Shown here piece after piece: positions 4,255 to 15,506 of a DNA stretch of 15,709 nucleotides. Positions within the stretch are counted from its first letter, which is position 1; every line of letters begins with the position of its first letter. A program made the position numbers and the translations under genes. Origin of the DNA: Clostridiales bacterium (GTDB taxonomy: Bacteria; Bacillota; Clostridia; Christensenellales; DUVY01). The DNA is taken from contig JAISFM010000153.1 of NCBI GenBank assembly GCA_031263605.1, positions 1 through 15,709 of the forward strand, given 5' to 3'. The notes below the pieces were generated by a model, which was given only the letters and a program-made list of their open reading frames with translations, ran no database searches and was not told where the DNA came from.

Positions 4255-4350
4255 GCGATTAGCGTCCAGTGTTGCCAATCTCTGTATAAAAATGTGCGTT
4301 TCGTGTTTTGTAGAGATTGCCGCGTCGCGCTGCGCGCTCCTCGCAATGAC
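4255..4350. repeat. R1 palindromic element, copy a. The right arm is gtagagattgccgcgtcgcgctgcgcgctcctcgcaatgac (4310-4350); the left arm is degenerate.
   Basis: The right arm is shared with copies at 4489-4530, 4540-4559 (partial), 5345-5386 and 12401-12441. The central tataaaaa..gcgtttcgtgtttt is shared with the 12326-12441 copy. Confidence 0.65.
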
Positions 4351-4374
4351 TTCGGCCGTTGCGCTCGCAACAGA

Positions 4375-4427: not shown

Positions 4428-4488
4428 CGAATGACAGAGGGCAGCGCGTTCGGAATGAGAGAGAAAAGCGCGGGGCGTTCCGGTGGTT

Positions 4489-4559
4489 GGTAGAGATTGC
4501 CGCGTCGCGCTTCGCGCTCCTCGCAATGACAACGGGGCGTTTGCGCTCCTCGCAATGAC
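4489..4559. repeat. R1 right-arm copy (4489-4530) plus a partial tandem right-arm fragment (4540-4559)
   Basis: ggtagagattgccgcgtcgcgcttcgcgctcctcgcaatgac, followed by gtttgcgctcctcgcaatgac. Confidence 0.65.
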
Positions 4560-4660: not shown

Positions 4661-4800
4661 ATTAAACGACATTTTTCTCATGTTGACCCGTCAAGGCGGG
4701 TCTATAAGAAGAAAACAATCCGGCTCCAAGCGGAAAATCGGACAGAGCACATAAAAGAATGTTCGTACCGGATCGATACCCCGCGGCTTGCGCGTTGACG
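4661..4800 (+). ncRNA. R3, a conserved ~140-nt intergenic element, copy 1. The second copy is at 15365-15506. It is either a candidate structured leader/small RNA or a dispersed repeat.
   Basis: Two same-orientation copies at roughly 80% identity. One stem, tccgN/tcgga, shows a G-U to A-U change between copies. An internal gacccg-tcaagg-cgggtc hairpin is present in copy 1. Both copies end with a TTGAC(G/A) hexamer. Confidence 0.35.
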
Positions 4801-4868
4801 TTCGCAGAGCCCGTCCCCCGATTGGACGTTACCAAACAAAAATAGAGTACATAAGGAGAATACATACA

Positions 4869-5066
4869 ATGGCAACGGCAACCCCTATTCATGTGACGCC
4901 CCGTCCCGACGGGAAATGGCAGGTCATCAGAGGCGGCGGCGAAAAAGCGTCGGCCGTGACCGACACCCAAGCCGAAGCGATCGAAATCGCGAAAGGGTAC
5001 TCCCACAACGACGGCGCGCAGGTCATCGTCCACGGCCGCGGCGGCAAAATCCGCAAAAGTTGGTAA
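4869..5066 (+). CDS. DUF2188 family small protein (65 aa)
   Basis: AGGAGA RBS 7 nt upstream of the ATG. The sequence HVTPRPDGKWQVIRGGGEKASAVTDTQAEAIEIAKGYSHNDGAQVIVHGRGGKIRKSW matches the DUF2188 pattern (HV.P..DG.W.V...G..RA....T.AEAI..A......g..v.iHg.DGkI). Confidence 0.7.
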   Translation: MATATPIHVTPRPDGKWQVIRGGGEKASAVTDTQAEAIEIAKGYSHNDGAQVIVHGRGGKIRKSW

Positions 5067-5191
5067 GAAAGGCTTGATAGTATAGCCCCCCCTTTCCGGA
5101 AACCCGTCCAAACCGGCGGGTCTTTTTGCATGGCACGGCGGCACGGGGGAAGTGAGAATCGAGAAATGTTGGAATTTAGTGGTTAGTGATT

Positions 5192-5327
5192 AGTGTCGGT
5201 CGGGGGATGTTTGCGCGGGGAAACCACCCCGTAGCCTGTCGGCGGCATCCCTCCGAGGGAGGGGAATAGAGAAGTGAGAATTGAAAATTGAAAATTGAGA
5301 AGTGTCGGTCGGGGGATGTTTGCGCGC
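5192..5327. repeat. Direct 26-mer repeat agtgtcggtcgggggatgtttgcgcg (5192-5217 and 5301-5327) flanking purine-rich (gaaaatt)n microsatellite-like sequence
   Basis: Exact duplication read from the sequence. Confidence 0.6.
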
Positions 5328-5344
5328 GGGGCGTTCCTGTGTTT

Positions 5345-5386
5345 GGTAGAGATTGCCGCGTCGCGCTTTGCGCTCCTCGCAATGAC
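5345..5386. repeat. R1 right-arm copy
   Basis: ggtagagattgccgcgtcgcgctttgcgctcctcgcaatgac. Confidence 0.65.
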
Positions 5387-5408
5387 GAAGCGTTCCTGTG
5401 TTTGTTTG

Positions 5409-6930: not shown

Positions 6931-7920
6931 TTATTTTTGCGGCGTATGCATAAGCCGGAGTTGTTTTGCCAACCGTTCTTTGATTTGGCCTACAAAGCCT
7001 TGCGGGCTTAGGACTTTTACGGTGGGGCCGAAAGACAGTATCCGAATGAGCAATTCCGTTTCATCCGCAATATCGTAAGAGAGTTGGCAGGTATAAATAC
7101 CGCGATCGGGGTCATATTCGGTTTTGCGGTCAAAAGAGGCGAATTGCAACAGGAAACGTTCCAACGCATTCCGCTCCTTCGTGATTTCAAGCGTTATCGG
7201 CGGATTGGCATTCGGTTCTGTGAACAATTTGCGCACGATTTCCGGCGGCGCGCGGTGCGGCAAGCCCGACGGCTCAACCGAAACGATTCTGCCGAGATTT
7301 AAGGTTACTTTATTCAATTTTTGCGTTTTGGCGTTGAATGCGGCGCACAGCAGGCGGAATTTATCGTTAAGAGATGAATAACTTAATTTGAACGGGTGAT
7401 AGGCGCGTTGCGACCGCCCGACCCTTTCGCTGTGATAAACGATTGCGACGGGATACTTGTTTTTGCAGGCTTTTAGCAGTTCACGGAAGTTGGCGATATA
7501 AGCCGGGTCGCCGTAAGGGTCTCCGTCAAGGTGGCGGTCAACGGAAATAAAATCGCCCGCGTCAAAGGCGGGGGCGACGCCGCTTAACGCCCGCGCCAGC
7601 GTCGCCAGAGTTTCATCGCTTAAAAACAACCTTATGCGCGGGTCGGACAATAACGCTTTCAGCCACGATAATTCAAGTTGCGTCAGCGGCCGGATCGGCT
7701 GCGCGTCCAATTTTGAATAGTATAAATCGCCGCGCTTTTCCAGAAAGTTCCAGTCGCCGTCCAAAAGTTCGGGCAACAGGTGGAATGCCGTCTCGGAAAA
7801 ACCGTGTTCGCTTACGACGGCGTCGATATCTTTTTTGGAGACGCCGCCGCCGGCGCGCTTAACAATACGCGAAACTATGCCGTAGTAGCAGCCGTACAGT
7901 TCGGAAAACAGTTTACTCAT
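6931..7920 (-). CDS. WYL domain-containing protein, 329 aa (PafC-like partner). A WYL-like core (FRLLCAAF...LNLGRIVSVEP) is followed by a WCX-like C-terminus (ELLIRILSFGPTVKVLSPQGFVGQIKERL). Start at ATG 7920 with a GGGAGGAGG RBS, overlapping the upstream gene's stop by 8 nt.
   Basis: The C-terminal ILSFGP.V.VL.P motif is characteristic of WYL/WCX regulators. The N-terminus is paralogous to the upstream gene (MSKLFSEL vs MAEFSEL). The ORF-track M at 8007 lacks an RBS, so internal M30 with a strong SD is chosen. Confidence 0.65.
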   Translation of the reverse strand: MSKLFSELYGCYYGIVSRIVKRAGGGVSKKDIDAVVSEHGFSETAFHLLPELLDGDWNFLEKRGDLYYSKLDAQPIRPLTQLELSWLKALLSDPRIRLFLSDETLATLARALSGVAPAFDAGDFISVDRHLDGDPYGDPAYIANFRELLKACKNKYPVAIVYHSERVGRSQRAYHPFKLSYSSLNDKFRLLCAAFNAKTQKLNKVTLNLGRIVSVEPSGLPHRAPPEIVRKLFTEPNANPPITLEITKERNALERFLLQFASFDRKTEYDPDRGIYTCQLSYDIADETELLIRILSFGPTVKVLSPQGFVGQIKERLAKQLRLMHTPQK

Positions 7921-9145
7921 CGCCCGCCTCCTCCCGTATCCCGTACATCTCGGCCATGCGGCGGATATCGGCGGCCAGTTTTTTTTCAAGCCGGTCGGTC
8001 GATTCAAAAGATATAAGTCTGCCGATAAAAGTTTTTACCCACGGCATCGCTTCGTTAGCGTCGAATATATCCTTGGAAAACTTAAAAGTATTGTCGCCGA
8101 CGCGCTCGAACGCGCCGCCGCGCCCTTCCTTGTTTATCCTGCTTATAATATGCTTTTCACGGTTCTCGTCGATGCGCAGGGTCATAGAAAACCCCCTTTC
8201 GTTCCTTGAATCGCCGTCGAATGAAACGCCCCAGACCCTGCCGATGTTTCGGGAGAGGGATTCCTGTATTTCCATATAGTTTTCGACCGGTTCTAAGGCC
8301 GCGACGGATTTGATTGCGTCGAGGCGGTAGGTTGAAAACCTGCGGGAGGCGGGGAGGTACGCGCAAAGGTAGCGGCGGCCGCTCCAAAAACTGCACAGGA
8401 TTTTTGCGGGCACGACTCTGTTTTTTACCGGTTTCCCGCTTTTTGCGCCGACGAGTACGGCCTCGATTTCTTTATGTTCGCGCAGGGCGTCCAGAATATC
8501 GAAAAGGATTCCGTCTTCAAGCGTGTGCGCTATGTAATGGTGCTTGAACACGAATAAATCGTTTTCACAGCCGGTATTGTCCAAGATATAGTCGCCGATT
8601 ATGCCCAAGGCGCCGCTTTGGAAAAATTTGACGGCGTCCAAGATTTCGTCGTCTAAATTTACGGTGTTTTTTGATAGGCTGTAACGGAACGCTTTGCCGT
8701 TCTTTTCTTTGGTCAGAATGCCCAATCCCGCGTACTCGGCGCACTTGCCGCGCACGGTTTGCAGGTCAAAGAAGTTGCCGCTTTTAGCCGATATTTCATC
8801 GGTCAATTCGTCCGCCGACTTATCGCCGGTTTGCAACGCGTCCAAAATGTAAAAGTGCAGCATAATATCGTTGCCTGTGAAACTCTTGCTTTTCCACGCC
8901 GCGAATAAAGGGTTGGCGGGGATTTTTCCGCAATCCGCGGAAACGAACGAAACCTTACTGCCGCCGGCATAAGCCCATTTGAAGTTTTCGCCTAAATAAC
9001 TTTCGCAGCGGCGTTTTTCGTTATCGTATGTGCGGGCGGATTTCAATGAAAAATCATCGCGCGCCTTAAACCCGTATATGTAAAAGTCGCGCATAAAGTC
9101 TCTGATTTTATTGAAGTTTTTAATGAGTTCCGAAAATTCCGCCAT
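7913..9145 (-). CDS. WYL domain-containing protein, 410 aa (PafB-like partner). WYL motif: PAKILCSFWSGRRYLCAYLPASRRFSTYRLDAIKSV. C-terminus: MPWVKTFIGRLISFESTDRLEKKL.
   Basis: Start at ATG 9145 (GAGGT RBS), chosen over the ORF-track start at 9262. WYL consensus is wYLvay...r..R.frLdRI. It is translationally coupled (8-nt overlap) to the downstream WYL paralog. Confidence 0.65.
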   Translation of the reverse strand: MAEFSELIKNFNKIRDFMRDFYIYGFKARDDFSLKSARTYDNEKRRCESYLGENFKWAYAGGSKVSFVSADCGKIPANPLFAAWKSKSFTGNDIMLHFYILDALQTGDKSADELTDEISAKSGNFFDLQTVRGKCAEYAGLGILTKEKNGKAFRYSLSKNTVNLDDEILDAVKFFQSGALGIIGDYILDNTGCENDLFVFKHHYIAHTLEDGILFDILDALREHKEIEAVLVGAKSGKPVKNRVVPAKILCSFWSGRRYLCAYLPASRRFSTYRLDAIKSVAALEPVENYMEIQESLSRNIGRVWGVSFDGDSRNERGFSMTLRIDENREKHIISRINKEGRGGAFERVGDNTFKFSKDIFDANEAMPWVKTFIGRLISFESTDRLEKKLAADIRRMAEMYGIREEAGDE

Positions 9146-9214
9146 AGCGTACAACCTCGAACTATGCGTACATATTGTATCAAAAAAACGCGCGCAAGTC
9201 AAAGTAACGGAAGG

Positions 9215-9270
9215 CTCGCAAACTTTTTTATACGCAAAACCGTGTTTTTCGGGTTTTCGCAAACTTTTCT
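9215..9270. promoter_or_regulatory. Divergent intergenic region with direct repeats, a candidate operator for the WYL pair or the rtcB promoter. The repeats are ctcgcaaactttttta (9215-9230) and ttcgcaaacttttct (9256-9270), plus cgcaaaac at 9233-9240.
   Basis: Repeats are spaced ~41 bp apart (about four helical turns) between the WYL-B start (9145) and the rtcB start (9342). TTGATA and TATAAT-like hexamers are present at 9291-9312. Confidence 0.4.
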
Positions 9271-9341: not shown

Positions 9342-10574
9342 ATGTTCACGGTAAAAAACAAAAAAATGAAGTTTCCGATTAAGGCTTGGCTTAAAAACAG
9401 AAGCCAAACGGAAGAGGGGTGTTTGGAGCAGGCCATGCGCCTTGCCGAGATGCCGTTTTTACATAAATGGGTCGCCCTTATGCCCGACGCGCATGTCGGA
9501 ATGGGAATGCCTATCGGCGGCGTTATCGCTGCGAAAGGCGTTGTAATCCCGAACGCGGTCGGCGTCGATATCGGGTGCGGCATGGCTTATGCGGGGACGG
9601 ATATCAGGGTTGCGGAGGTACGGGGAATCGCCACAGGCAACGGGCCGTTCATGCAGGCCCTTGTGGGGGATATACTCCGCAACATTCCGGTCGGCTTTAA
9701 CCGCCATAAGACAAAACAGGCTTGCGCCGCTTTGGACAAGGCGGCCGCCGAGGCGGATAAATACGCGGCGAACCCCGAACTTGCCCGGGAGATAGAAAAC
9801 GGATACTATCAAGCCGGAACGTTGGGCGGCGGCAATCATTTTATCGAAATTCAGGAATCCGACGACGGATTTTTGGGAATCATGATCCATTCGGGCAGCC
9901 GCAACTTCGGAAAGCAAATATGCGACTATTATCATAAAGCCGCCCGCGCGCTCAACGAAAAGTGGTACGCGCCTATTCCCGACGAATGGCGGCTGGCGTT
10001 CTTGCCGATCGACAGCAAGGAAGGGAAACAATATATCGACTGGATGAATCTTGCGCTTGACTTTGCCTATGAAAACCGCGCGTTGATGTTGAAGGCGACG
10101 CAAAACATACTGGACAGGATGATGCAAAAATACGCGCATGCCGACTATAAGTATACGGACGAGATTAACTGCCACCACAATTACGCCGCTATCGAGCATC
10201 ATTATGACGCGAACGTCTGGGTTCACCGTAAGGGCGCGACAAGGGCGAGAGCGGGCGAGAGGGCTGTAATCCCCGGAGCGATGGGCTCTTACAGTTATAT
10301 CGTCGAGGGATTAGGGAATGCGGAAAGTTTTTGTTCGAGTTCTCACGGCGCGGGCAGGCGGTATTCCCGTAAGGGCGCGACGGAAGCGTTTACGGCCGAA
10401 CAGGTACTGCGCGACTTAAAGGGGCAAGGCGTTGTGTTGGGCAAAAACAACAAAGCCGACGTCGCCGAAGAAAGCCGCTTCGCGTACAAGGACATAGACG
10501 AAGTTATGAGCAATCAAAAAGACCTCGTTAAAGCCGTAACGCGCTTGAAAACCGTGGGCGTCGTAAAGGGCTGA
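9342..10574 (+). CDS. rtcB: RNA ligase RtcB (3'-phosphate/5'-OH RNA-splicing ligase), 410 aa
   Basis: GGAGGG RBS. Hallmark segments: PDAHVGMGMPIGGV, GVDIGCGM, GGGNHFIEIQ, HSGSRNFG, CHHNYA, and SSHGAGR containing the nucleophilic His. Confidence 0.9.
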   Translation: MFTVKNKKMKFPIKAWLKNRSQTEEGCLEQAMRLAEMPFLHKWVALMPDAHVGMGMPIGGVIAAKGVVIPNAVGVDIGCGMAYAGTDIRVAEVRGIATGNGPFMQALVGDILRNIPVGFNRHKTKQACAALDKAAAEADKYAANPELAREIENGYYQAGTLGGGNHFIEIQESDDGFLGIMIHSGSRNFGKQICDYYHKAARALNEKWYAPIPDEWRLAFLPIDSKEGKQYIDWMNLALDFAYENRALMLKATQNILDRMMQKYAHADYKYTDEINCHHNYAAIEHHYDANVWVHRKGATRARAGERAVIPGAMGSYSYIVEGLGNAESFCSSSHGAGRRYSRKGATEAFTAEQVLRDLKGQGVVLGKNNKADVAEESRFAYKDIDEVMSNQKDLVKAVTRLKTVGVVKG

Positions 10575-11080: not shown

Positions 11081-12184
11081 ATGAAAATCATCATCCATCA
11101 AAACGAGCGCGGTTTCTTATTCAAGAACGGTACATACAAGAGGATGCTGCAACCCGGCAAAAACAAGGTAAATACTTTTTTAGGCGAGACCTTTGTGCGC
11201 GTCGGTTTGGACAAACCGGTTAAGGTCGCCGGTACGGATACGGAGATTTTAATGCGGGACGCGGAGTTTGCCGCAAGCGTGTTAAAGGTTGACGTCCCCG
11301 ACGGCTGTTTCGGCGCGGTTTTCAAGGACAACTGCATCAAGGACATCTATAAGGCGGGTAGTCATGTCTTTTTCAACCTCTACGGCAACCTGTCTTTCAA
11401 ATTGATCGACATTTCCAAGGTGGAGGTTGAGGACCTGACCCCTTCGCAGATTGACAGCCTGCCGAAAGGCCTTTACAAAAAGATTGTCGTTGCCGAGGGC
11501 GAGGTGGGTTTGTTAAATCTTGACGGTAAGTTTGTCCGTGAACTGAAAGCGGGCGCGTACTGCTTTTGGGATGCTTATACCGCCGTAACTTGCGAGAAGG
11601 TCGATTTGCGCTCTCAGGAACTGGAAATTAACGGTCAAGAGATTTTGACCGCCGATAAGGTATCTTTGCGCGTAAACTTTATCGCGAACTACCGCGTCAC
11701 GGACGCCGTTAAAATCACCGGAGAGGTCAAGAACTACAAGGAGCGCATCTATACGGTTACGCAACTGGCTTTGCGCGAGTATATCGGCAAGTTCCGTTTC
11801 GACGAACTTTTGGAACAGAAAGAGAATATCGCGTCAAGCGTTTTGACCCAACTTCAAGCAAAGTTCGGCGAATATTGCGTTGAGTTTACGGGCGCGGGCT
11901 TAAAGGACATCGTCCTGCCCGGCGAGATTCGGGACATCATGAACACCGTTCTGATTGCCGAGAAAAACGCTCAAGCCAACGTTATCGCCCGTCGCGAGGA
12001 GGTCGCGTCCACCCGGAGTTTGCTTAACACGGCCAAACTTTTGGACGAAAACGCCACGCTTTACAGGTTAAAGGAAATGGAATATTTAGAAAAAATCTGC
12101 GACAAGGTCGGCACAATCTCCGTCGGCGGCGGCAGCCTCTTAACCGAACTTCAAAAAATCGTCGGCGCGCCCCGGGCTAAATAG
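11081..12184 (+). CDS. SPFH/band-7 (stomatin/prohibitin/flotillin-like) domain protein, 367 aa
   Basis: AGGAGAAGCGGAGAA RBS. SPFH-like core: LREYIGKFRFDELLEQKENI...IVLPGEIRDIMNTVLIAEKNAQANVIARREE. Confidence 0.6.
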   Translation: MKIIIHQNERGFLFKNGTYKRMLQPGKNKVNTFLGETFVRVGLDKPVKVAGTDTEILMRDAEFAASVLKVDVPDGCFGAVFKDNCIKDIYKAGSHVFFNLYGNLSFKLIDISKVEVEDLTPSQIDSLPKGLYKKIVVAEGEVGLLNLDGKFVRELKAGAYCFWDAYTAVTCEKVDLRSQELEINGQEILTADKVSLRVNFIANYRVTDAVKITGEVKNYKERIYTVTQLALREYIGKFRFDELLEQKENIASSVLTQLQAKFGEYCVEFTGAGLKDIVLPGEIRDIMNTVLIAEKNAQANVIARREEVASTRSLLNTAKLLDENATLYRLKEMEYLEKICDKVGTISVGGGSLLTELQKIVGAPRAK

Positions 12185-12331
12185 GCTTGCGGCGAAAATG
12201 AATCACCCTGCGGCAAGACCGCGAGGAATTTACCCGGAGAGATTAAAAGGTAAGCGGAAAGACGCCCAAAGGCCGCCCGCGAAAATGTCCGCGCCGCGAG
12301 GTCGGGAGTGGACAAATAGCGATGATACTGG

Positions 12332-12441
12332 GTCATCGCGAGGAGCGAACGCAGTGAGCGACGAAGCAATCTCTATATAAAAAGGCGCGTTTCGTGTTTT
12401 GTAGAGATTGCCGCGTCGCGCGTCGCGCTCCTCGCAATGAC
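12332..12441. repeat. R1 element, complete inverted-repeat copy. Left arm gtcatcgcgaggagcgaacgcagtgagcgacgaagcaatctcta; central tataaaaaggcgcgtttcgtgtttt; right arm gtagagattgccgcgtcgcgcgtcgcgctcctcgcaatgac. It is followed by the R4 module gtttgtacaccactcccgtgagg (12466-12510; compare 4598-4625).
   Basis: The arms are reverse complements of each other over ~40 nt. Same family as 4255-4350 and others. Confidence 0.7.
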
Positions 12442-12521
12442 TTGCCGTGTTTACAATCAACGCGGTTTGTACACCACTCCCGTGAGGTTAACAGTTTCTA
12501 CACCCGCGAGGTTAAAATCGT

Positions 12522-12550
12522 TTGACGGCGGGCGAATTTTAGTATATAAT
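12522..12550 (+). promoter_or_regulatory. Promoter for the rtcB2-prfH operon: -35 TTGACG (12522-12527), 17-bp spacer, -10 TATAAT (12545-12550)
   Basis: Canonical hexamers with correct spacing. A leader ORF and terminator follow. Confidence 0.6.
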
Positions 12551-12580
12551 ATTTATATCCTGCAAACGGAGGGTCTTATC

Positions 12581-12616
12581 ATGCGTGTGCAAAATTTGGA
12601 AAATTTAATAGTTTAG
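12581..12616 (+). CDS. 11-codon leader ORF (MRVQNLENLIV) with a strong GGAGGG RBS 7 nt upstream
   Basis: Perfect SD and spacing, sited between the promoter and an intrinsic terminator. Speculative as a regulatory leader peptide. Confidence 0.35.
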   Translation: MRVQNLENLIV

Positions 12617-12642
12617 AACGGTAAAATCGTACTCTTGATAGG

Positions 12643-12671
12643 AGCCGCGGTTTTTCGCCGCGGCTTTTTTA
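12643..12671 (+). terminator. Intrinsic terminator (agccgcgg-tttttcg-ccgcggct + T6) in the leader of the rtcB2-prfH operon. The 3' half ccgcggcttt is repeated at ~12718-12730 (ccgccgcggctttggcg), and a second hairpin cggcttg...caagccgTTTTcat lies at ~12698-12751, consistent with alternative attenuator structures.
   Basis: 8-bp perfect GC stem plus T-run. The duplicated 3' strand was read directly. Confidence 0.6.
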
Positions 12672-12776
12672 ATGTCTAAAACGGGAATATTCCTTTTTAC
12701 GGCTTGTCTGTTAATCCGCCGCGGCTTTGGCGATTTTTAGGCAAGCCGTTTTCATATGTCAATAAAAAAGGAATTT

Positions 12777-13850
12777 ATGAATACAAATAACAAATTGACT
12801 ATCGTCTCGGACGATAAAAACTGGATGGAGGGCAGCGCGGTAAATCAAGCCCGTGAGGTTTGCAATCTTGACGGGGTTCAAGCCGTGTTCGCTATGCCCG
12901 ACCTTCACGCGGGCAAAACGCCCGTAGGGGTAGTCGTCATCACAAAGGGCAAAATCTACCCTCATTTAATCGGCTCGGATATCGGTTGCGGAATGAGTAT
13001 ATTCTCGACCGGCGTCGAGAGCAAAAGAATCAAAACGGACAGGTGGGTTAGCCGCCTTAACACGATCAAAACCTTGGCGGCGGTTCCGAATAGCGAATAC
13101 CGTTTCGATTGCCCGATACCGGATTTCGGAAGCATAGGCTCCGGCAACCATTTCGCCGAGTTTCAAGCAATCCACGAGGTCTTTGACGCGGGCGGTTTGG
13201 CGGCTCTGGCAATGGACAAATCCGAACTTTTTATGACCGTTCACAGTGGATCGAGAAGTTACGGGAGTAAAATCTTGCAAGAGTTTAACGACCGCAACGG
13301 CTACGCCGCGGACGGCAAAGAGGCAAAAGGATATCTGGAAAAACACGGCGACGCTCTTTTTTGGGCGGCAAAGAACAGGTATGAGTCGGCAAAGAAGTTA
13401 ATCGATTACTTGGGCTTTTCGCAAGCGGTAGAGCGCAAACTGGAATGCGGCCATAATTTTTTGGAGCGGTCCGGCGGCTTGTATTATCACCGCAAGGGAG
13501 TTGTGTCCGCTCAAACCGGCGCAGTGCTTATCGCGGGTTCGAGAGGGACGCTCAGTTACATCGTAAGGCCGACGGCTAAATGCGCGGAGTACGGTTACAG
13601 TTTGGCGCACGGTAGCGGCAGGAAATGGGCGCGCAGTATGTGTAAGCCCCGCATTCGGGAAAAGTACACCTTGGAAACAATCAAGCGGAACAAGTTCGGC
13701 GGCCAACTGGTTTGCCACGATTACGGTTTGCTGTTCGAGGAAGCGCCGGACGCGTACAAGAATGTGGACGTTATTATTGCCGTATTGGAACGGTACGGCA
13801 TGATTGAGCGCGTCGCCGCCCTCAAACCTGTGCTTACTTTTAAGGGTTAG
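12777..13850 (+). CDS. rtcB2: RtcB-family RNA ligase paralog (release factor H-coupled RtcB2), 357 aa. ATG 12777 with an AAGGA RBS is preferred to ATG 12756.
   Basis: RtcB motifs: MPDLHAGKTPVGVVV, GSDIGCGM, GSGNHFAEFQ, HSGSRSYG, CGHNF, and AHGSGRK containing the nucleophilic His. It sits immediately upstream of prfH. Confidence 0.85.
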   Translation: MNTNNKLTIVSDDKNWMEGSAVNQAREVCNLDGVQAVFAMPDLHAGKTPVGVVVITKGKIYPHLIGSDIGCGMSIFSTGVESKRIKTDRWVSRLNTIKTLAAVPNSEYRFDCPIPDFGSIGSGNHFAEFQAIHEVFDAGGLAALAMDKSELFMTVHSGSRSYGSKILQEFNDRNGYAADGKEAKGYLEKHGDALFWAAKNRYESAKKLIDYLGFSQAVERKLECGHNFLERSGGLYYHRKGVVSAQTGAVLIAGSRGTLSYIVRPTAKCAEYGYSLAHGSGRKWARSMCKPRIREKYTLETIKRNKFGGQLVCHDYGLLFEEAPDAYKNVDVIIAVLERYGMIERVAALKPVLTFKG

Positions 13851-13864
13851 GGGGGGAGGAGCGT

Positions 13865-14476
13865 ATGTTATACCACATAACGGCGGGGCGCGGCCCTGCG
13901 GAATGCGAACTTGCGGTCGGAAGGTTTCTGGCCGTTTTGGCCGCCGAGACGGACGTTGAGGTTTTGGCGAAGGCGGAAGGGCGGTACGCGGGCTGCCTGA
14001 AATCCGCGCTTGTGAGGGCGGGCATAAACGGCCCGCCCTTGCAAGGCACGGTGCAATGGATATGCAGAAGCCCGTTCCGCCCTAACCACAAGAGAAAGAA
14101 TTGGTTTATCGGCGTTAACCGAATGGACGAGCCGAAAGATTGCGGTTATGAAATCGGCGGCGGCGGCGGCGTGGTTTTTCAGACCTTCGGCGCGAGCGGC
14201 AAGGGCGGGCAGCACGTAAACAAAACGGAATCCGCCGTCCGCGCCATCCATATCGCAACGGGGCTTACGGCGACCGCAAGCGGCGAGCGCAGCCAACATC
14301 AGAACAAGAAAACCGCCGTGGAGCGGTTGAATGAGTTGCTTCGGCAACGGGAGGACAGCCGGGATCTTTCCGAAAAGGGCGCGCTCTTTTTCAACCATAA
14401 TAACCTGTCCCGCGGCAGCCCCGCGCGGATATACGAGGGTATCGGCTTTAAGCGGATTACAGGAGATACAACATGA
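13865..14476 (+). CDS. prfH: Peptide chain release factor H (PrfH): a short RF homolog with the GGQ motif, lacking the codon-recognition domain 1. 203 aa.
   Basis: GGAGGAG RBS. SGKGGQHVNKTESAVRAIHIATG is the class-I RF peptidyl-hydrolase GGQ loop. The ~200 aa size and rtcB paralog adjacency match the RtcB2-PrfH module. Confidence 0.85.
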   Translation: MLYHITAGRGPAECELAVGRFLAVLAAETDVEVLAKAEGRYAGCLKSALVRAGINGPPLQGTVQWICRSPFRPNHKRKNWFIGVNRMDEPKDCGYEIGGGGGVVFQTFGASGKGGQHVNKTESAVRAIHIATGLTATASGERSQHQNKKTAVERLNELLRQREDSRDLSEKGALFFNHNNLSRGSPARIYEGIGFKRITGDTT

Positions 14477-15354
14477 GGATTATTTCAAATTTTAAGGACT
14501 ACTACGACTTTGCGGGCTTTGCCGCGCGTGACGGCGATTATAGGGAAACCGTATACTTGCGCAAGCCCGCGTTAAAAGTAACGGACGTGCCGCAGGAATA
14601 TGCCGACGCCAATCCTCAAAATTATTACGGCGGCGGCTTGGACGCGGTTACATCGAAGTGGTGGACGAAAAACAAAAAGGTATTTTCTTTGCCCGATACG
14701 CCCGGCGGCGCGCGGCCGGGCTGCCTTTTTGTATGCGGTAAAGCCTATCCGTTTTTATTCCTGCGCGGGGCGGCTCGAATCGGCGCGGACGGTAAAGGCG
14801 GGCAAATTAGGTTTTCAAAGTATTTTAACGACGCTATCAAAGACAGTATCGCTAAAAAGCGGGAAAAGCATAATTGGGAGCGCGATAGAAAAGACGAGGA
14901 CGAATTCAATTTTTTTAGAGTTTATTATTCTATGCGTGAATTTTTTGAGGACGCGACGGCCGAAAAGCATACCGTTTATTATTCCCGACGGTATAGATCG
15001 GATAATTTAGAGCGCGACCTAACGCGATTCTTTGACTTTTATGAGGGCAAAGATTTTACCGAGTTGCATTTGCGTTTGGATTGCCCGATTTTCCTTACGC
15101 TTTTTCAGGAAAGCGGAGTTAGGCGGGGCGATTTACGGCGCGAATACGAATTTGTTTTAAATCCGAACCTCTATGAATTTGATTTCGCAAGGGTTATGAG
15201 CGGCGATATTTTAGCGCAGGAACTGGATATGTTTTTAGGGAACGCGCTTGTCAAGGACAGTATGCCGCTTTCATACCAGTCCGATATCGATAAACTGACG
15301 GCATACGGTTTCGACGCCGTAACGTCGTTTCGGACTATAAAAGACAAGAAATAG
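14473..15354 (+). CDS. Hypothetical protein, 293 aa. Its start overlaps the prfH stop (ATGA), making it the third gene of the rtcB2-prfH operon.
   Basis: The 4-nt overlap implies translational coupling. GC3-rich coding-like usage. No recognisable motif. Confidence 0.6.
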   Translation: MRIISNFKDYYDFAGFAARDGDYRETVYLRKPALKVTDVPQEYADANPQNYYGGGLDAVTSKWWTKNKKVFSLPDTPGGARPGCLFVCGKAYPFLFLRGAARIGADGKGGQIRFSKYFNDAIKDSIAKKREKHNWERDRKDEDEFNFFRVYYSMREFFEDATAEKHTVYYSRRYRSDNLERDLTRFFDFYEGKDFTELHLRLDCPIFLTLFQESGVRRGDLRREYEFVLNPNLYEFDFARVMSGDILAQELDMFLGNALVKDSMPLSYQSDIDKLTAYGFDAVTSFRTIKDKK

Positions 15355-15364
15355 CCCGCCTCAT

Positions 15365-15506
15365 TTAAACGGACATTTTTCTCATGTTTGCCCGTCAAGA
15401 AAGCCCAATCAGAAGAAAATAGTCCGACTTCAAGCGGAAACATCGGACAGAGTAGAAAGAAAAATGCCCGTATCGGGTCGATATCTCGCGGCTTGCCGCG
15501 TTGACA
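15365..15506 (+). ncRNA. R3 conserved element, copy 2, beginning 11 nt after the operon stop. It is followed by a perfect GC hairpin ccccgccg-cttg-cggcgggg at 15541-15560.
   Basis: Aligns with 4661-4800 over its whole length. Confidence 0.35.

Follow-up and report, generated by a model that had tools for sequence, protein, structure and literature searches.

How does a cell sense that its ribosomes have been cut in the decoding centre, and how does it control the genes that repair them? No system other than RtcB2-PrfH is known to rescue such ribosomes and ligate them again (PMC9304027, PMC9223846). The literature on RtcB2-PrfH that we searched addresses neither the control of expression nor damage sensing, and the regulation data that we found concern P. 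aeruginosa only, where the operon was studied as an efflux-pump regulator. Here, we analysed an rtcB2-prfH operon of a Clostridiales bacterium (assembly GCA_031263605.1) on contig JAISFM010000153.1, a 15.7-kb contig of a metagenome-assembled genome whose whole stretch of 15,709 nucleotides (nt) is hereafter called the window. The gap of 592 nt 5' of rtcB2 houses a leader. The region 12522-12776 serves the rtcB2-prfH operon as a dedicated 5' leader, and we consider it probable, although well short of certain, that it acts as a ribosome-sensing leader-peptide attenuator.

Architecture of the leader

The genes around the leader all lie on the + strand. The leader and the two genes that it precedes consist of the following elements (coordinates refer to the window; alignment A1 comprises the six close leaders described in the next section).

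12522-12550, + strand: SigA/sigma-70-type promoter with TTGACG (12522-12527), a 17-nt spacer and TATAAT (12545-12550); 11/12 consensus matches
12568-12573, + strand: Shine-Dalgarno (SD) sequence GGAGGG of the leader open reading frame (ORF), 7 nt 5' of its ATG; GGAGG invariant in alignment A1
12581-12616, + strand: leader ORF (uORF) of 11 codons plus TAG (12614-12616), peptide MRVQNLENLIV; frame and length conserved
12617-12630, + strand: post-stop motif AACGGTAAAATCGT, a small 5-bp hairpin ACGGU/AUCGU in the minimum free energy (MFE) fold
12640-12670, + strand: intrinsic terminator T1 with the core GCCGCGG (12644-12650) / CCGCGGC (12658-12664), a U-rich loop and T6 (12665-12670); present in MFE and centroid folds
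12679-12698, + strand: SD-mimic/anti-SD hairpin AAACGGGAATAT / ATATTCCTTTTT, a palindrome
12699-12752, + strand: terminator-like hairpin H2, arms 12699-12716 / 12732-12749 followed by UUUU to 12752; RNAalifold consensus
12717-12726, + strand: H2 apex, repeating the GCCRCGG word of the T1 5' arm and complementing the T1 3' arm
12765-12779, + strand: rtcB2 ribosome-binding region AAAAAGGAAT (SD region 12765-12774, AAGGA 12768-12772) and start codon ATG (12777-12779); a conserved block
12777-13850, + strand: rtcB2, release-factor-H-coupled RNA ligase and first regulated gene; Pfam RtcB, E = 2.6e-56
13865-14476, + strand: prfH, peptide chain release factor H; Pfam RF-1 and TIGR03072

A sequence-only reading of this region had already proposed the promoter, the GGAGGG ribosome-binding site (RBS) with the ORF MRVQNLENLIV and a GC hairpin with a T6 run about 25 nt after its stop codon. 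These elements were all recovered here, the hairpin being T1, which begins 27 nt after the uORF stop. The two regulated genes passed curated NCBI models, RtcB2 with 330 bits against TIGR03073 release_rtcB (cut-off 271.8) and PrfH with 183.7 bits against TIGR03072 release_prfH (cut-off 166.65); with 400 bits against PRK09588, RtcB2 stayed just under the cut-off of 407. The start codon of rtcB2 is the ATG at 12777, from which translation gives the full RtcB match, rather than the first in-frame ATG at 12756.

The promoter is the sole promoter-like site on the + strand between 11900 and 13100, and there is none between T1 and rtcB2. Transcription would be predicted to start near 12557. Both hexamers are unchanged across the close relatives in alignment A1, and the promoter is recognisable in 12/12 leaders. 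Two other candidates were rejected. An internal promoter in the 5' arm of H2, suggested by a TATAAT in L004, has a poor -35 element, the word is accounted for by stem pairing and the promoter scan found none there; a minus-strand promoter-like site at 12762-12733 lacks conservation in the relatives. Adjoining the -35 hexamer, there is a 16-nt direct repeat (ACTCCCGTGAGGTTAA at 12476-12491 and ACACCCGCGAGGTTAA at 12500-12515, 24-nt spacing), which was not found in the relatives and may represent either a site for protein binding or a duplication of local origin. The word CCGCGAGG occurs also at 12219 and 12294.

Conservation of the leader across loci

The leader set comprises 12 distinct Clostridial rtcB2-prfH loci, for which DNA was fetched around the closest of about 1,800 RtcB2 homologues and whose RtcB2 proteins are 49-100% identical to that of the window. 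Some were taken from metagenomes, others from the isolates Petroclostridium sp. X23 (CP124862), Clostridium formicaceticum (CP020559; leader at L214 2237-2500) and a Faecalispora-type genome. Six close leaders (window, L002, L004, L005, L008 and L009; RtcB2 of the relatives 74-84% identical) form alignment A1, and six distant ones (L090, L092, L093, L214, L215 and L216), to which the C. formicaceticum and Petroclostridium sp. X23 loci belong, come with RtcB2 proteins of 49-65% identity. Conserved or invariant in alignment A1 are the promoter hexamers, GGAGG, ATCATGCGTG, the position of the stop codon, T1, the ATG after its U-run, H2 and the SD block at the rtcB2 start (AAAGGA...ATGAATAC). The distant leaders have diverged in sequence and show the same layout of a SigA-type promoter, an SD sequence, a uORF and a U-tailed GC hairpin.

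The genes 5' of the leader differ at nearly every locus (radical-SAM, SdpI, aspartate kinase, CCA-adding enzyme, DegV and others), and the Band-7 gene that precedes it in the window recurs in L009 only. As the upstream gene varies in this way, the leader travels with the rtcB2-prfH cassette. The sequence-only reading had regarded the region as a cis-regulatory leader of this operon with a leader ORF and a terminator, an interpretation which the conserved cassette supports. It had also named a lack of conservation of the leader ORF in related genomes as a refutation, which did not come about: position, frame and length of the uORF are kept in 12 loci with varied upstream neighbours. At L009 (1906-3757), the leader is fully intact although there is a frameshift in rtcB2 near codon 15 and prfH is broken into two ORFs; the locus is either in decay or misassembled.

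The uORF has 11 codons in 10/12 leaders and 10 and 12 codons in the remaining two, and the GGAG core lies 9-10 nt from the leader ATG in all leaders measured. Across the ten 11-codon leaders there are zero insertions or deletions within the uORF. The flanking lengths vary, with 26-45 nt between stop codon and T1 and 11-27 nt between transcription start site (TSS) and SD. The peptides of the 12 leaders are MRVQNLENLIV, MRVTNLEKLII, MRVTNLRKLNI, MRVTYFWRPKT, MRVQNLKELNI, MRATYLEILTV, MSEIKKGKSNID, MCATGKGNLII, MSGTILREFNI, MLVTNYEVNDN, MLVTNFEVENN and MLATRGSKIE. Leu9 is encoded in the close leaders by four synonymous codons (TTA, CTA, TTG and CTG). With SD, start, frame and length of the uORF kept in 12 loci, its ribosome-binding site looks functional. 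Directly 3' of the stop codon, the nine type-A leaders, including the divergent L090, L092 and L216, share the sequence CGG(U/A)A(A/U/G)AA.

A blind detector, which required an SD sequence, an ATG, 4-30 codons and then a terminator within at most 70 nt, recognised 12/12 Clostridial leaders and, among the matches listed, 5/80 distant rtcB loci (Fisher p = 2e-11) and 0/80 of the reverse strands of these loci. Among 118 unrelated metagenomic terminators with the T1 stem word, it detected one only. The distant rtcB loci, used as Gram-negative and control sets here and below, came from a scan of genome contigs with an RtcB2 profile, the matches listed all having at most 42% identity. A metagenome scan with the T1 pattern gave 120 matches, two of them at rtcB2 loci and both duplicates of L002 and L005; the others formed the specificity control of unrelated terminators. 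Full-length matches to a profile spanning uORF to T1 were found at rtcB2 loci only in 1.3 Mb of fetched DNA, without a second copy of the leader, and a search of viral contigs revealed no relatives. The Rfam 15 search of the leader gave zero matches at the gathering thresholds; the best sub-threshold match (23 bits, threshold 114) spans the terminator only. No transfer RNA or transfer-messenger RNA was found in a search of the region.

Structures between the leader ORF and rtcB2

The fold of the 234-nt leader has an energy of -67.7 kcal/mol (z = -2.7), and 2/200 shuffled sequences were equally stable. For the six close leaders, the RNAalifold consensus contains T1 and H2 with four compensatory pairs, some of which are located in the lower stem of H2.

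T1 is present in 12/12 leaders, 26-45 nt 3' of the uORF stop. In the window its GC stem counts 8-12 bp, the full 12 bp extending from 12640, and the hairpin energy amounts to -16 to -18.5 kcal/mol. The fourth pair shows a compensatory change, being G-C in the window and A-U in the other close leaders. The stem word reads GCCACGG in 7/9 type-A leaders, down to 62% RtcB2 identity, GCCGCGG in the window and GCCACGC in L092; CCACGG/CCGTGG words occur also in T1 of L215 and in T2 of L093 and L214. An ATG located 1-2 bases after the T1 U-run (12672-12674 in the window) is invariant in eight leaders (window, L002, L004, L005, L008, L009, L092 and L216). A second uORF starting from it was rejected, as the resulting ORFs vary in length between 2 and over 50 codons.

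H2 is present in all six close leaders and consists of a lower stem of 11-18 bp and an apical mini-hairpin CGCCGCGGCTTTGGCG at 12717-12732. A second U-tailed hairpin of unrelated sequence was found in L090, L092, L093 and L214, while L215 and L216 have T1 alone. The sequence-only reading had described H2 as a hairpin overlapping the rtcB2 RBS. The hairpin exists, but it does not overlap the RBS, which can be covered by a separate element. The anti-SD sequence ATTCCTTTTT (12689-12698) is a perfect 10/10 complement of the rtcB2 SD region AAAAAGGAAT (12765-12774) and, as this complementarity suggests, can switch partner from its own hairpin to that region. Hairpins of the type AAAGGA...TCCTTT were found by folding in L002, L004 and L009 and by sequence reading in L005 and L008. 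A CCUUUUU word that could pair with AAAAGG of the rtcB2 SD is found again in most leaders, with a CCUUUUU:AAAAGG pairing in the window, L005, L008, L093 and L215, although it is weak in comparison to shuffled sequences (p 0.03-0.5).

The same reading had also noted that the 3' strand of the terminator is duplicated about 55 nt downstream. The repeat CGCCGCGGCTTT does occur twice (12656-12667 and 12717-12728), but with a spacing of 61 nt, and the relatives reveal that it is the T1 5' arm which was copied. The duplicate resembles a copy of the 3' arm in the window because only the window's word (CCGCGG) is palindromic. The word at the H2 apex is CCACGG in 4/5 close relatives and CCGCGG in L005. 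In each of the six close leaders, the T1 3' arm and the H2 apex can form a duplex of 7-8 bp with -11.5 to -19 kcal/mol (p 0.002-0.024 in comparison to shuffled sequences). The apex copy cannot be a classical antiterminator of T1, since it is located downstream of the termination point. Apparent likenesses to 16S ribosomal RNA, of the H2 arms to the 1492-1513 region and of AGCCGCGGU to the 530 loop, we take to be a probable coincidence of short GC-rich words.

Leader ORFs in proteobacterial rtcB2-prfH operons

P. aeruginosa is among the genomes with a release factor H operon (PMC1586002). Its PA5471 (ArmZ) is a member of the RtcB family (UPF0027/PRK09588), is co-transcribed with the release-factor-H gene PA5470 and is homologous to the E. 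coli ykfJ-prfH operon; both genes are induced by ribosome-targeting agents via PA5471.1, a leader of 13 codons located some 250 bp upstream, and it was proposed that stalling on PA5471.1 remodels the RNA and blocks a 3:4 terminator (PMC3516279, PMC12057347, PMC13041342). Since experiments have shown this homologous operon to be controlled by a leader peptide sensing stalled ribosomes, the attenuator interpretation of the Clostridial leader has a direct precedent. The idea put forward from the sequence alone, namely that ribosome behaviour on a leader ORF regulates a repair operon, therefore has an experimental counterpart by analogy.

A wider survey points in the same direction. Among the matches listed, 16/28 Gram-negative rtcB2-prfH loci have an SD sequence and an ATG-started ORF of 8-20 codons at -140 to -250, compared to 4/28 on the reverse strand and 5/52 rtcB loci without prfH (p = 8e-6). 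The peptides fall into families, with MQQLITPCRTCLV and MQQLITLCRSRLV as Pseudomonas-type, MQQVQHITLCRRIQG in Leminorella and MTNT.RSFAGL.R in Pseudoalteromonas. E. coli IAI39 (NC_011750.1) contains an unannotated 15-codon uORF, MTNPLSMTLCRPFQD (L217 915-962), behind AAGGAGG and 112 nt 5' of rtcB2, and the Gammaproteobacteria L016, L026, L019 and L028 have unannotated uORFs with strong SD sequences about 150-200 nt 5' of rtcB2; including that of E. coli, these uORFs have 13-15 codons. The motif [IM]T[LP]CR is common to several of them (E. coli MTNPLSMTLCRPFQD, Leminorella MQQVQHITLCRRIQG and Pseudomonas-type MQQLITLCRSRLV). Leader uORFs thus appear to be a general property of the rtcB2-prfH operon, as far as the sequences indicate, and their presence before many proteobacterial rtcB2-prfH genes strengthens a functional interpretation of the Clostridial uORF. 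Our literature search revealed nothing on an rtcB2-prfH leader in Firmicutes or E. coli.

Within 400 nt upstream of four rtcB genes without prfH (L045, L046, L058 and L077), we observed an SD sequence, an ATG-started uORF with 10-12 codons and, behind it, a strong terminator. The respective peptides are MRCARSIDFHQL, MLFSLGKSLI, MTHAASPAFTR and MPRTAICNLTTT. Leader-peptide control may, on this pattern, extend to other RtcB genes.

Proposed mechanism and alternative explanations

We propose that the leader works as follows. A strong and probably constitutive promoter would start transcription near 12557, and ribosomes would load on the strong SD sequence and translate the 11-codon uORF. In healthy cells, most transcripts would stop at T1 and give rise to an RNA of about 115 nt. 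Transcripts that escape T1 would meet the U-tailed H2 and the anti-SD sequence able to cover the rtcB2 RBS, and we propose that basal expression is low because these two elements act on the escaping transcripts. If translation of the uORF were disturbed, for instance because decoding centres are damaged or because toxins or antibiotics target the ribosome, termination would be relieved and rtcB2-prfH would be made. Rescue and repair of ribosomes by PrfH and RtcB2 would then reset the switch and close a feedback loop. The input would be ribosome stalling, by analogy to PA5471.1-armZ-prfH of P. aeruginosa.

The step between the ribosome and T1 was addressed by ribosome-mask folding, in which the RNA from the TSS to the T1 tail was folded at equilibrium in the 12 leaders with a footprint of 28 nt placed in turn on each P-site codon. 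The pair probability of T1 remained between 0.77 and 1.00 in 11/12 leaders, the exception being L093 with 0.41 when the ribosome was placed on codon 1. T1 is thus formed at nearly all ribosome positions, and the alternative-structure attenuation suggested by the sequence-only reading did not hold up as an equilibrium RNA switch: a classical antiterminator upstream of T1 was rejected, as the footprints do not displace T1, and the antiterminator candidate beats shuffled sequences in few leaders. This candidate is the motif CGGUAAAA after the uORF stop, whose pairing partners are the U-rich loop of T1 and the upper part of the T1 3' arm, with 8-9 bp in L004 and L009; it was not accepted. Likewise, a relay in which a free T1 3' arm binds the H2 apex and thereby opens H2 or the SD found no backing in nested folding. 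The complementarity is real, but with the T1 5' arm blocked, H2 and the SD remained as they were.

Several of these results weigh against the proposed attenuator. Mask folding found no antiterminator upstream of T1, pairing of CGGUAAAA beats shuffled sequences in 2/12 leaders only (L009 and L216), and blocking the T1 5' arm in silico in nested folding neither opened H2 nor freed the SD. The codon differences among the uORFs are 25 synonymous and 81 non-synonymous ones, so that the peptide is weakly conserved and nothing points to an arrest peptide that works by its sequence. As there is no sequence similarity to the proteobacterial leaders, the Clostridial leader cannot be called a homologue of PA5471.1, and the two are to be regarded as analogues only. 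Furthermore, we infer the start site, termination at T1 and inducibility alike. Loose peptide conservation is, on the other hand, typical of leaders that work via the position of the ribosome and not via a functional peptide, to which the Clostridial sequences would conform. As none of the 12 peptides has a stretch of one repeated codon, the leader is not an amino-acid sensor. The link from the state of the ribosome to T1 may be kinetic, a pseudoknot, a direct action of the ribosome or a factor.

The last of these possibilities leads to an alternative that we hold to be unlikely, namely antitermination by a protein or another trans-acting factor. T1 would then be constitutively strong, an RNA-binding factor would capture the GCCRCGG word in the T1 5' arm and at the H2 apex, and the uORF would be of secondary importance, for example for RNA stability or RNA polymerase pausing. 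Such a factor would fit the conservation of the T1 stem in sequence beyond pairing (GCCACGG in 7/9 type-A leaders), the second copy of the word that each of the six close leaders has at the apex of H2, and the folding tests, which found no RNA-only switch. It leaves, however, the strong SD sequence and the 11-codon frame in 12 loci unaccounted for, and no candidate for an RNA-binding regulator is common to the loci, where neighbours vary and the third gene is often absent; moreover, the studied homologous operon works through a leader peptide. It might also be speculated that the leader is an independent transcript of about 115 nt, a small messenger RNA or a small regulatory RNA, that rides with the cassette, with rtcB2 being expressed by unregulated leak-through and the anti-SD and H2 merely tuning translation or stability. 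T1 is predicted to form under all tested conditions, and attenuator-derived RNAs that act in trans, such as rnTrpL, exist elsewhere. Yet the unit is found always in the same orientation directly 5' of rtcB2 in 12 contexts and nowhere else, rtcB2 has no separate promoter, an 11-residue, poorly conserved peptide is unlikely to be a functional protein, and a repair operon that is permanently silent would hardly be of use to the cell. We therefore consider this explanation very improbable.

A variant of the attenuator itself deserves consideration, although we attach equally little credence to it. The leader could sense decoding fidelity at the stop codon, if damaged ribosomes failed at the uORF stop and ran on or stayed in the spacer, where they would melt or cover T1. 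This would account for the missing RNA antiterminator. The base after the uORF stop is A or C in 12/12 leaders (nominal p = 1e-4), which are weak termination contexts in E. coli, and the in-frame extension is open far enough to reach T1 in 9/12 leaders in comparison to 6/12 and 3/12 for the other frames. However, the frames do not differ significantly (p = 0.075) and the leaders are not independent observations, a second in-frame stop follows 2-3 codons on in L092, L216 and L093, and the variant requires tight coupling of ribosome and RNA polymerase, which is not the rule in Firmicutes. A related reading, which we judge decidedly unlikely, takes the leader as a direct sensor of decoding-centre damage and not as a general sensor of stalling: ribosomes with cut 16S ribosomal RNA would fail at the weak-context uORF stop and invade T1, and the freed T1 3' arm would dock on the H2 apex in a pseudoknot relay, so that RNA polymerase would pass the second terminator too. 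If this were true, then, taken with the uORFs 5' of rtcB2-prfH in many Proteobacteria including E. coli, self-diagnosis of ribosome integrity by means of a uORF would be a general and so far undescribed rule for the repair system.

Returning to the ribosome-sensing attenuator, the Clostridial cassette and the proteobacterial leader ORFs together suggest that a ribosome reading a tiny test ORF could serve as damage sensor. This offers a testable answer to the question of how cells sense ribosome damage, and cultured isolates carry the leader, namely C. formicaceticum, Petroclostridium sp. X23 and E. coli strains whose operon is intact, for example IAI39. The leader would also supply a compact switch that responds to translation stress, and it is a useful example for studying how attenuation could operate when a classical switch is missing, as no antiterminator was found and a copy of a terminator arm is conserved in the second hairpin.

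Genomic context

Two further genes flank the leader and the regulated gene pair.

11081-12184, + strand: SPFH/Band-7 protein, the gene 5' of the leader
14473-15354, + strand: ORF of 293 amino acids (aa), third operon gene, overlapping the prfH stop

Searches of Pfam, NCBIfam and PDB with the third gene gave zero matches. Homologues located after prfH exist also in L002, L004 and L008 and are missing at many loci; the gene may be a candidate for an uncharacterised third component of the repair operon.

Upstream of the leader, the window encodes a first RtcB of canonical length (410 aa, 9342-10574), which is divergently paired with two minus-strand genes for WYL and WCX domain proteins (7913-9262 and 6931-8007). 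As the first RtcB adjoins WYL genes and rtcB2 has an RNA leader, the two paralogues on the contig seem to be under different types of control.

The window also contains repeats. An imperfect palindromic repeat of about 110 nt (GTCATTGCGAGGAGCG ... GTAGAGATTGCCGCGTCGCGC ... GCGCTCCTCGCAATGAC), which has the look of a repetitive extragenic palindrome or a miniature inverted-repeat transposable element (REP/MITE-type), occurs in at least four copies (4276-4352, 4456-4532, 5312-5388 and 12332-12443), one of them just 5' of the leader promoter and outside the conserved leader. A direct repeat of 69 nt with 81% identity (4668-4736 and 15372-15440) corresponds to the 5' ends of the minus-strand ORFs 4662-5144 and 15171-15443, which are probably paralogous small genes.

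Comparison with known regulatory systems

The closest counterpart of the Clostridial leader is PA5471.1. Both systems have a short leader ORF (13 codons there, 11 here) 150-250 nt 5' of an RtcB-family gene that is co-transcribed with prfH, and terminator structures lie between leader and gene in both. They belong to different phyla, and peptide and RNA are without sequence similarity: the Clostridial peptides share nothing with the leaders of Pseudomonas, Leminorella and E. coli (MQQLIT.CR..., ...TLCR...), with PA5471.1 having Q3 and F4. Furthermore, the Clostridial leader contains tandem canonical U-tailed terminators and an anti-SD sequence, and the 1:2/2:3/3:4 switch proposed for P. aeruginosa is undetectable here by ribosome-mask folding. 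ArmZ has, in addition, a role as anti-repressor for MexZ in P. aeruginosa.

Ribosome-mediated attenuation is also established for Firmicute resistance genes (erm, cat and ABCF genes such as vmlR and lmo0919). These leaders, and the uORF of E. coli toiL-topAI (PMC12121999), resemble the Clostridial one: stress from ribosome-targeting agents is sensed on a short uORF behind a strong SD, and the output is terminator read-through or unmasking of the RBS. They differ in having a demonstrable antiterminator or anti-sequestrator helix that overlaps the uORF, or in being Rho-dependent in the case of toiL; neither helix was found here. The targets differ as well: the Clostridial genes serve the repair of ribosomes, not their protection or a modification of the drug target.

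With the trp, his and leu attenuators, the leader shares the order of promoter, leader ORF, intrinsic terminator and structural genes, and a terminating ribosome would cover the post-stop segment in a comparable manner. In contrast to these, the 12 Clostridial peptides lack regulatory codon runs, and the folding tests gave no sign of a 2:3 antiterminator region. Under RtcR and sigma-54, the E. coli rtcBA operon likewise represents an RtcB RNA-repair ligase that is controlled upon damage of the translation apparatus, in this case by a protein activator at a sigma-54 promoter and not by a sigma-70-type promoter with a cis-acting RNA leader as here; no RtcR-like gene adjoins rtcB2 in the window. 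Judged by these parallels, the leader in the window is a Gram-positive analogue of the ribosome-sensing leader-peptide attenuators already known.

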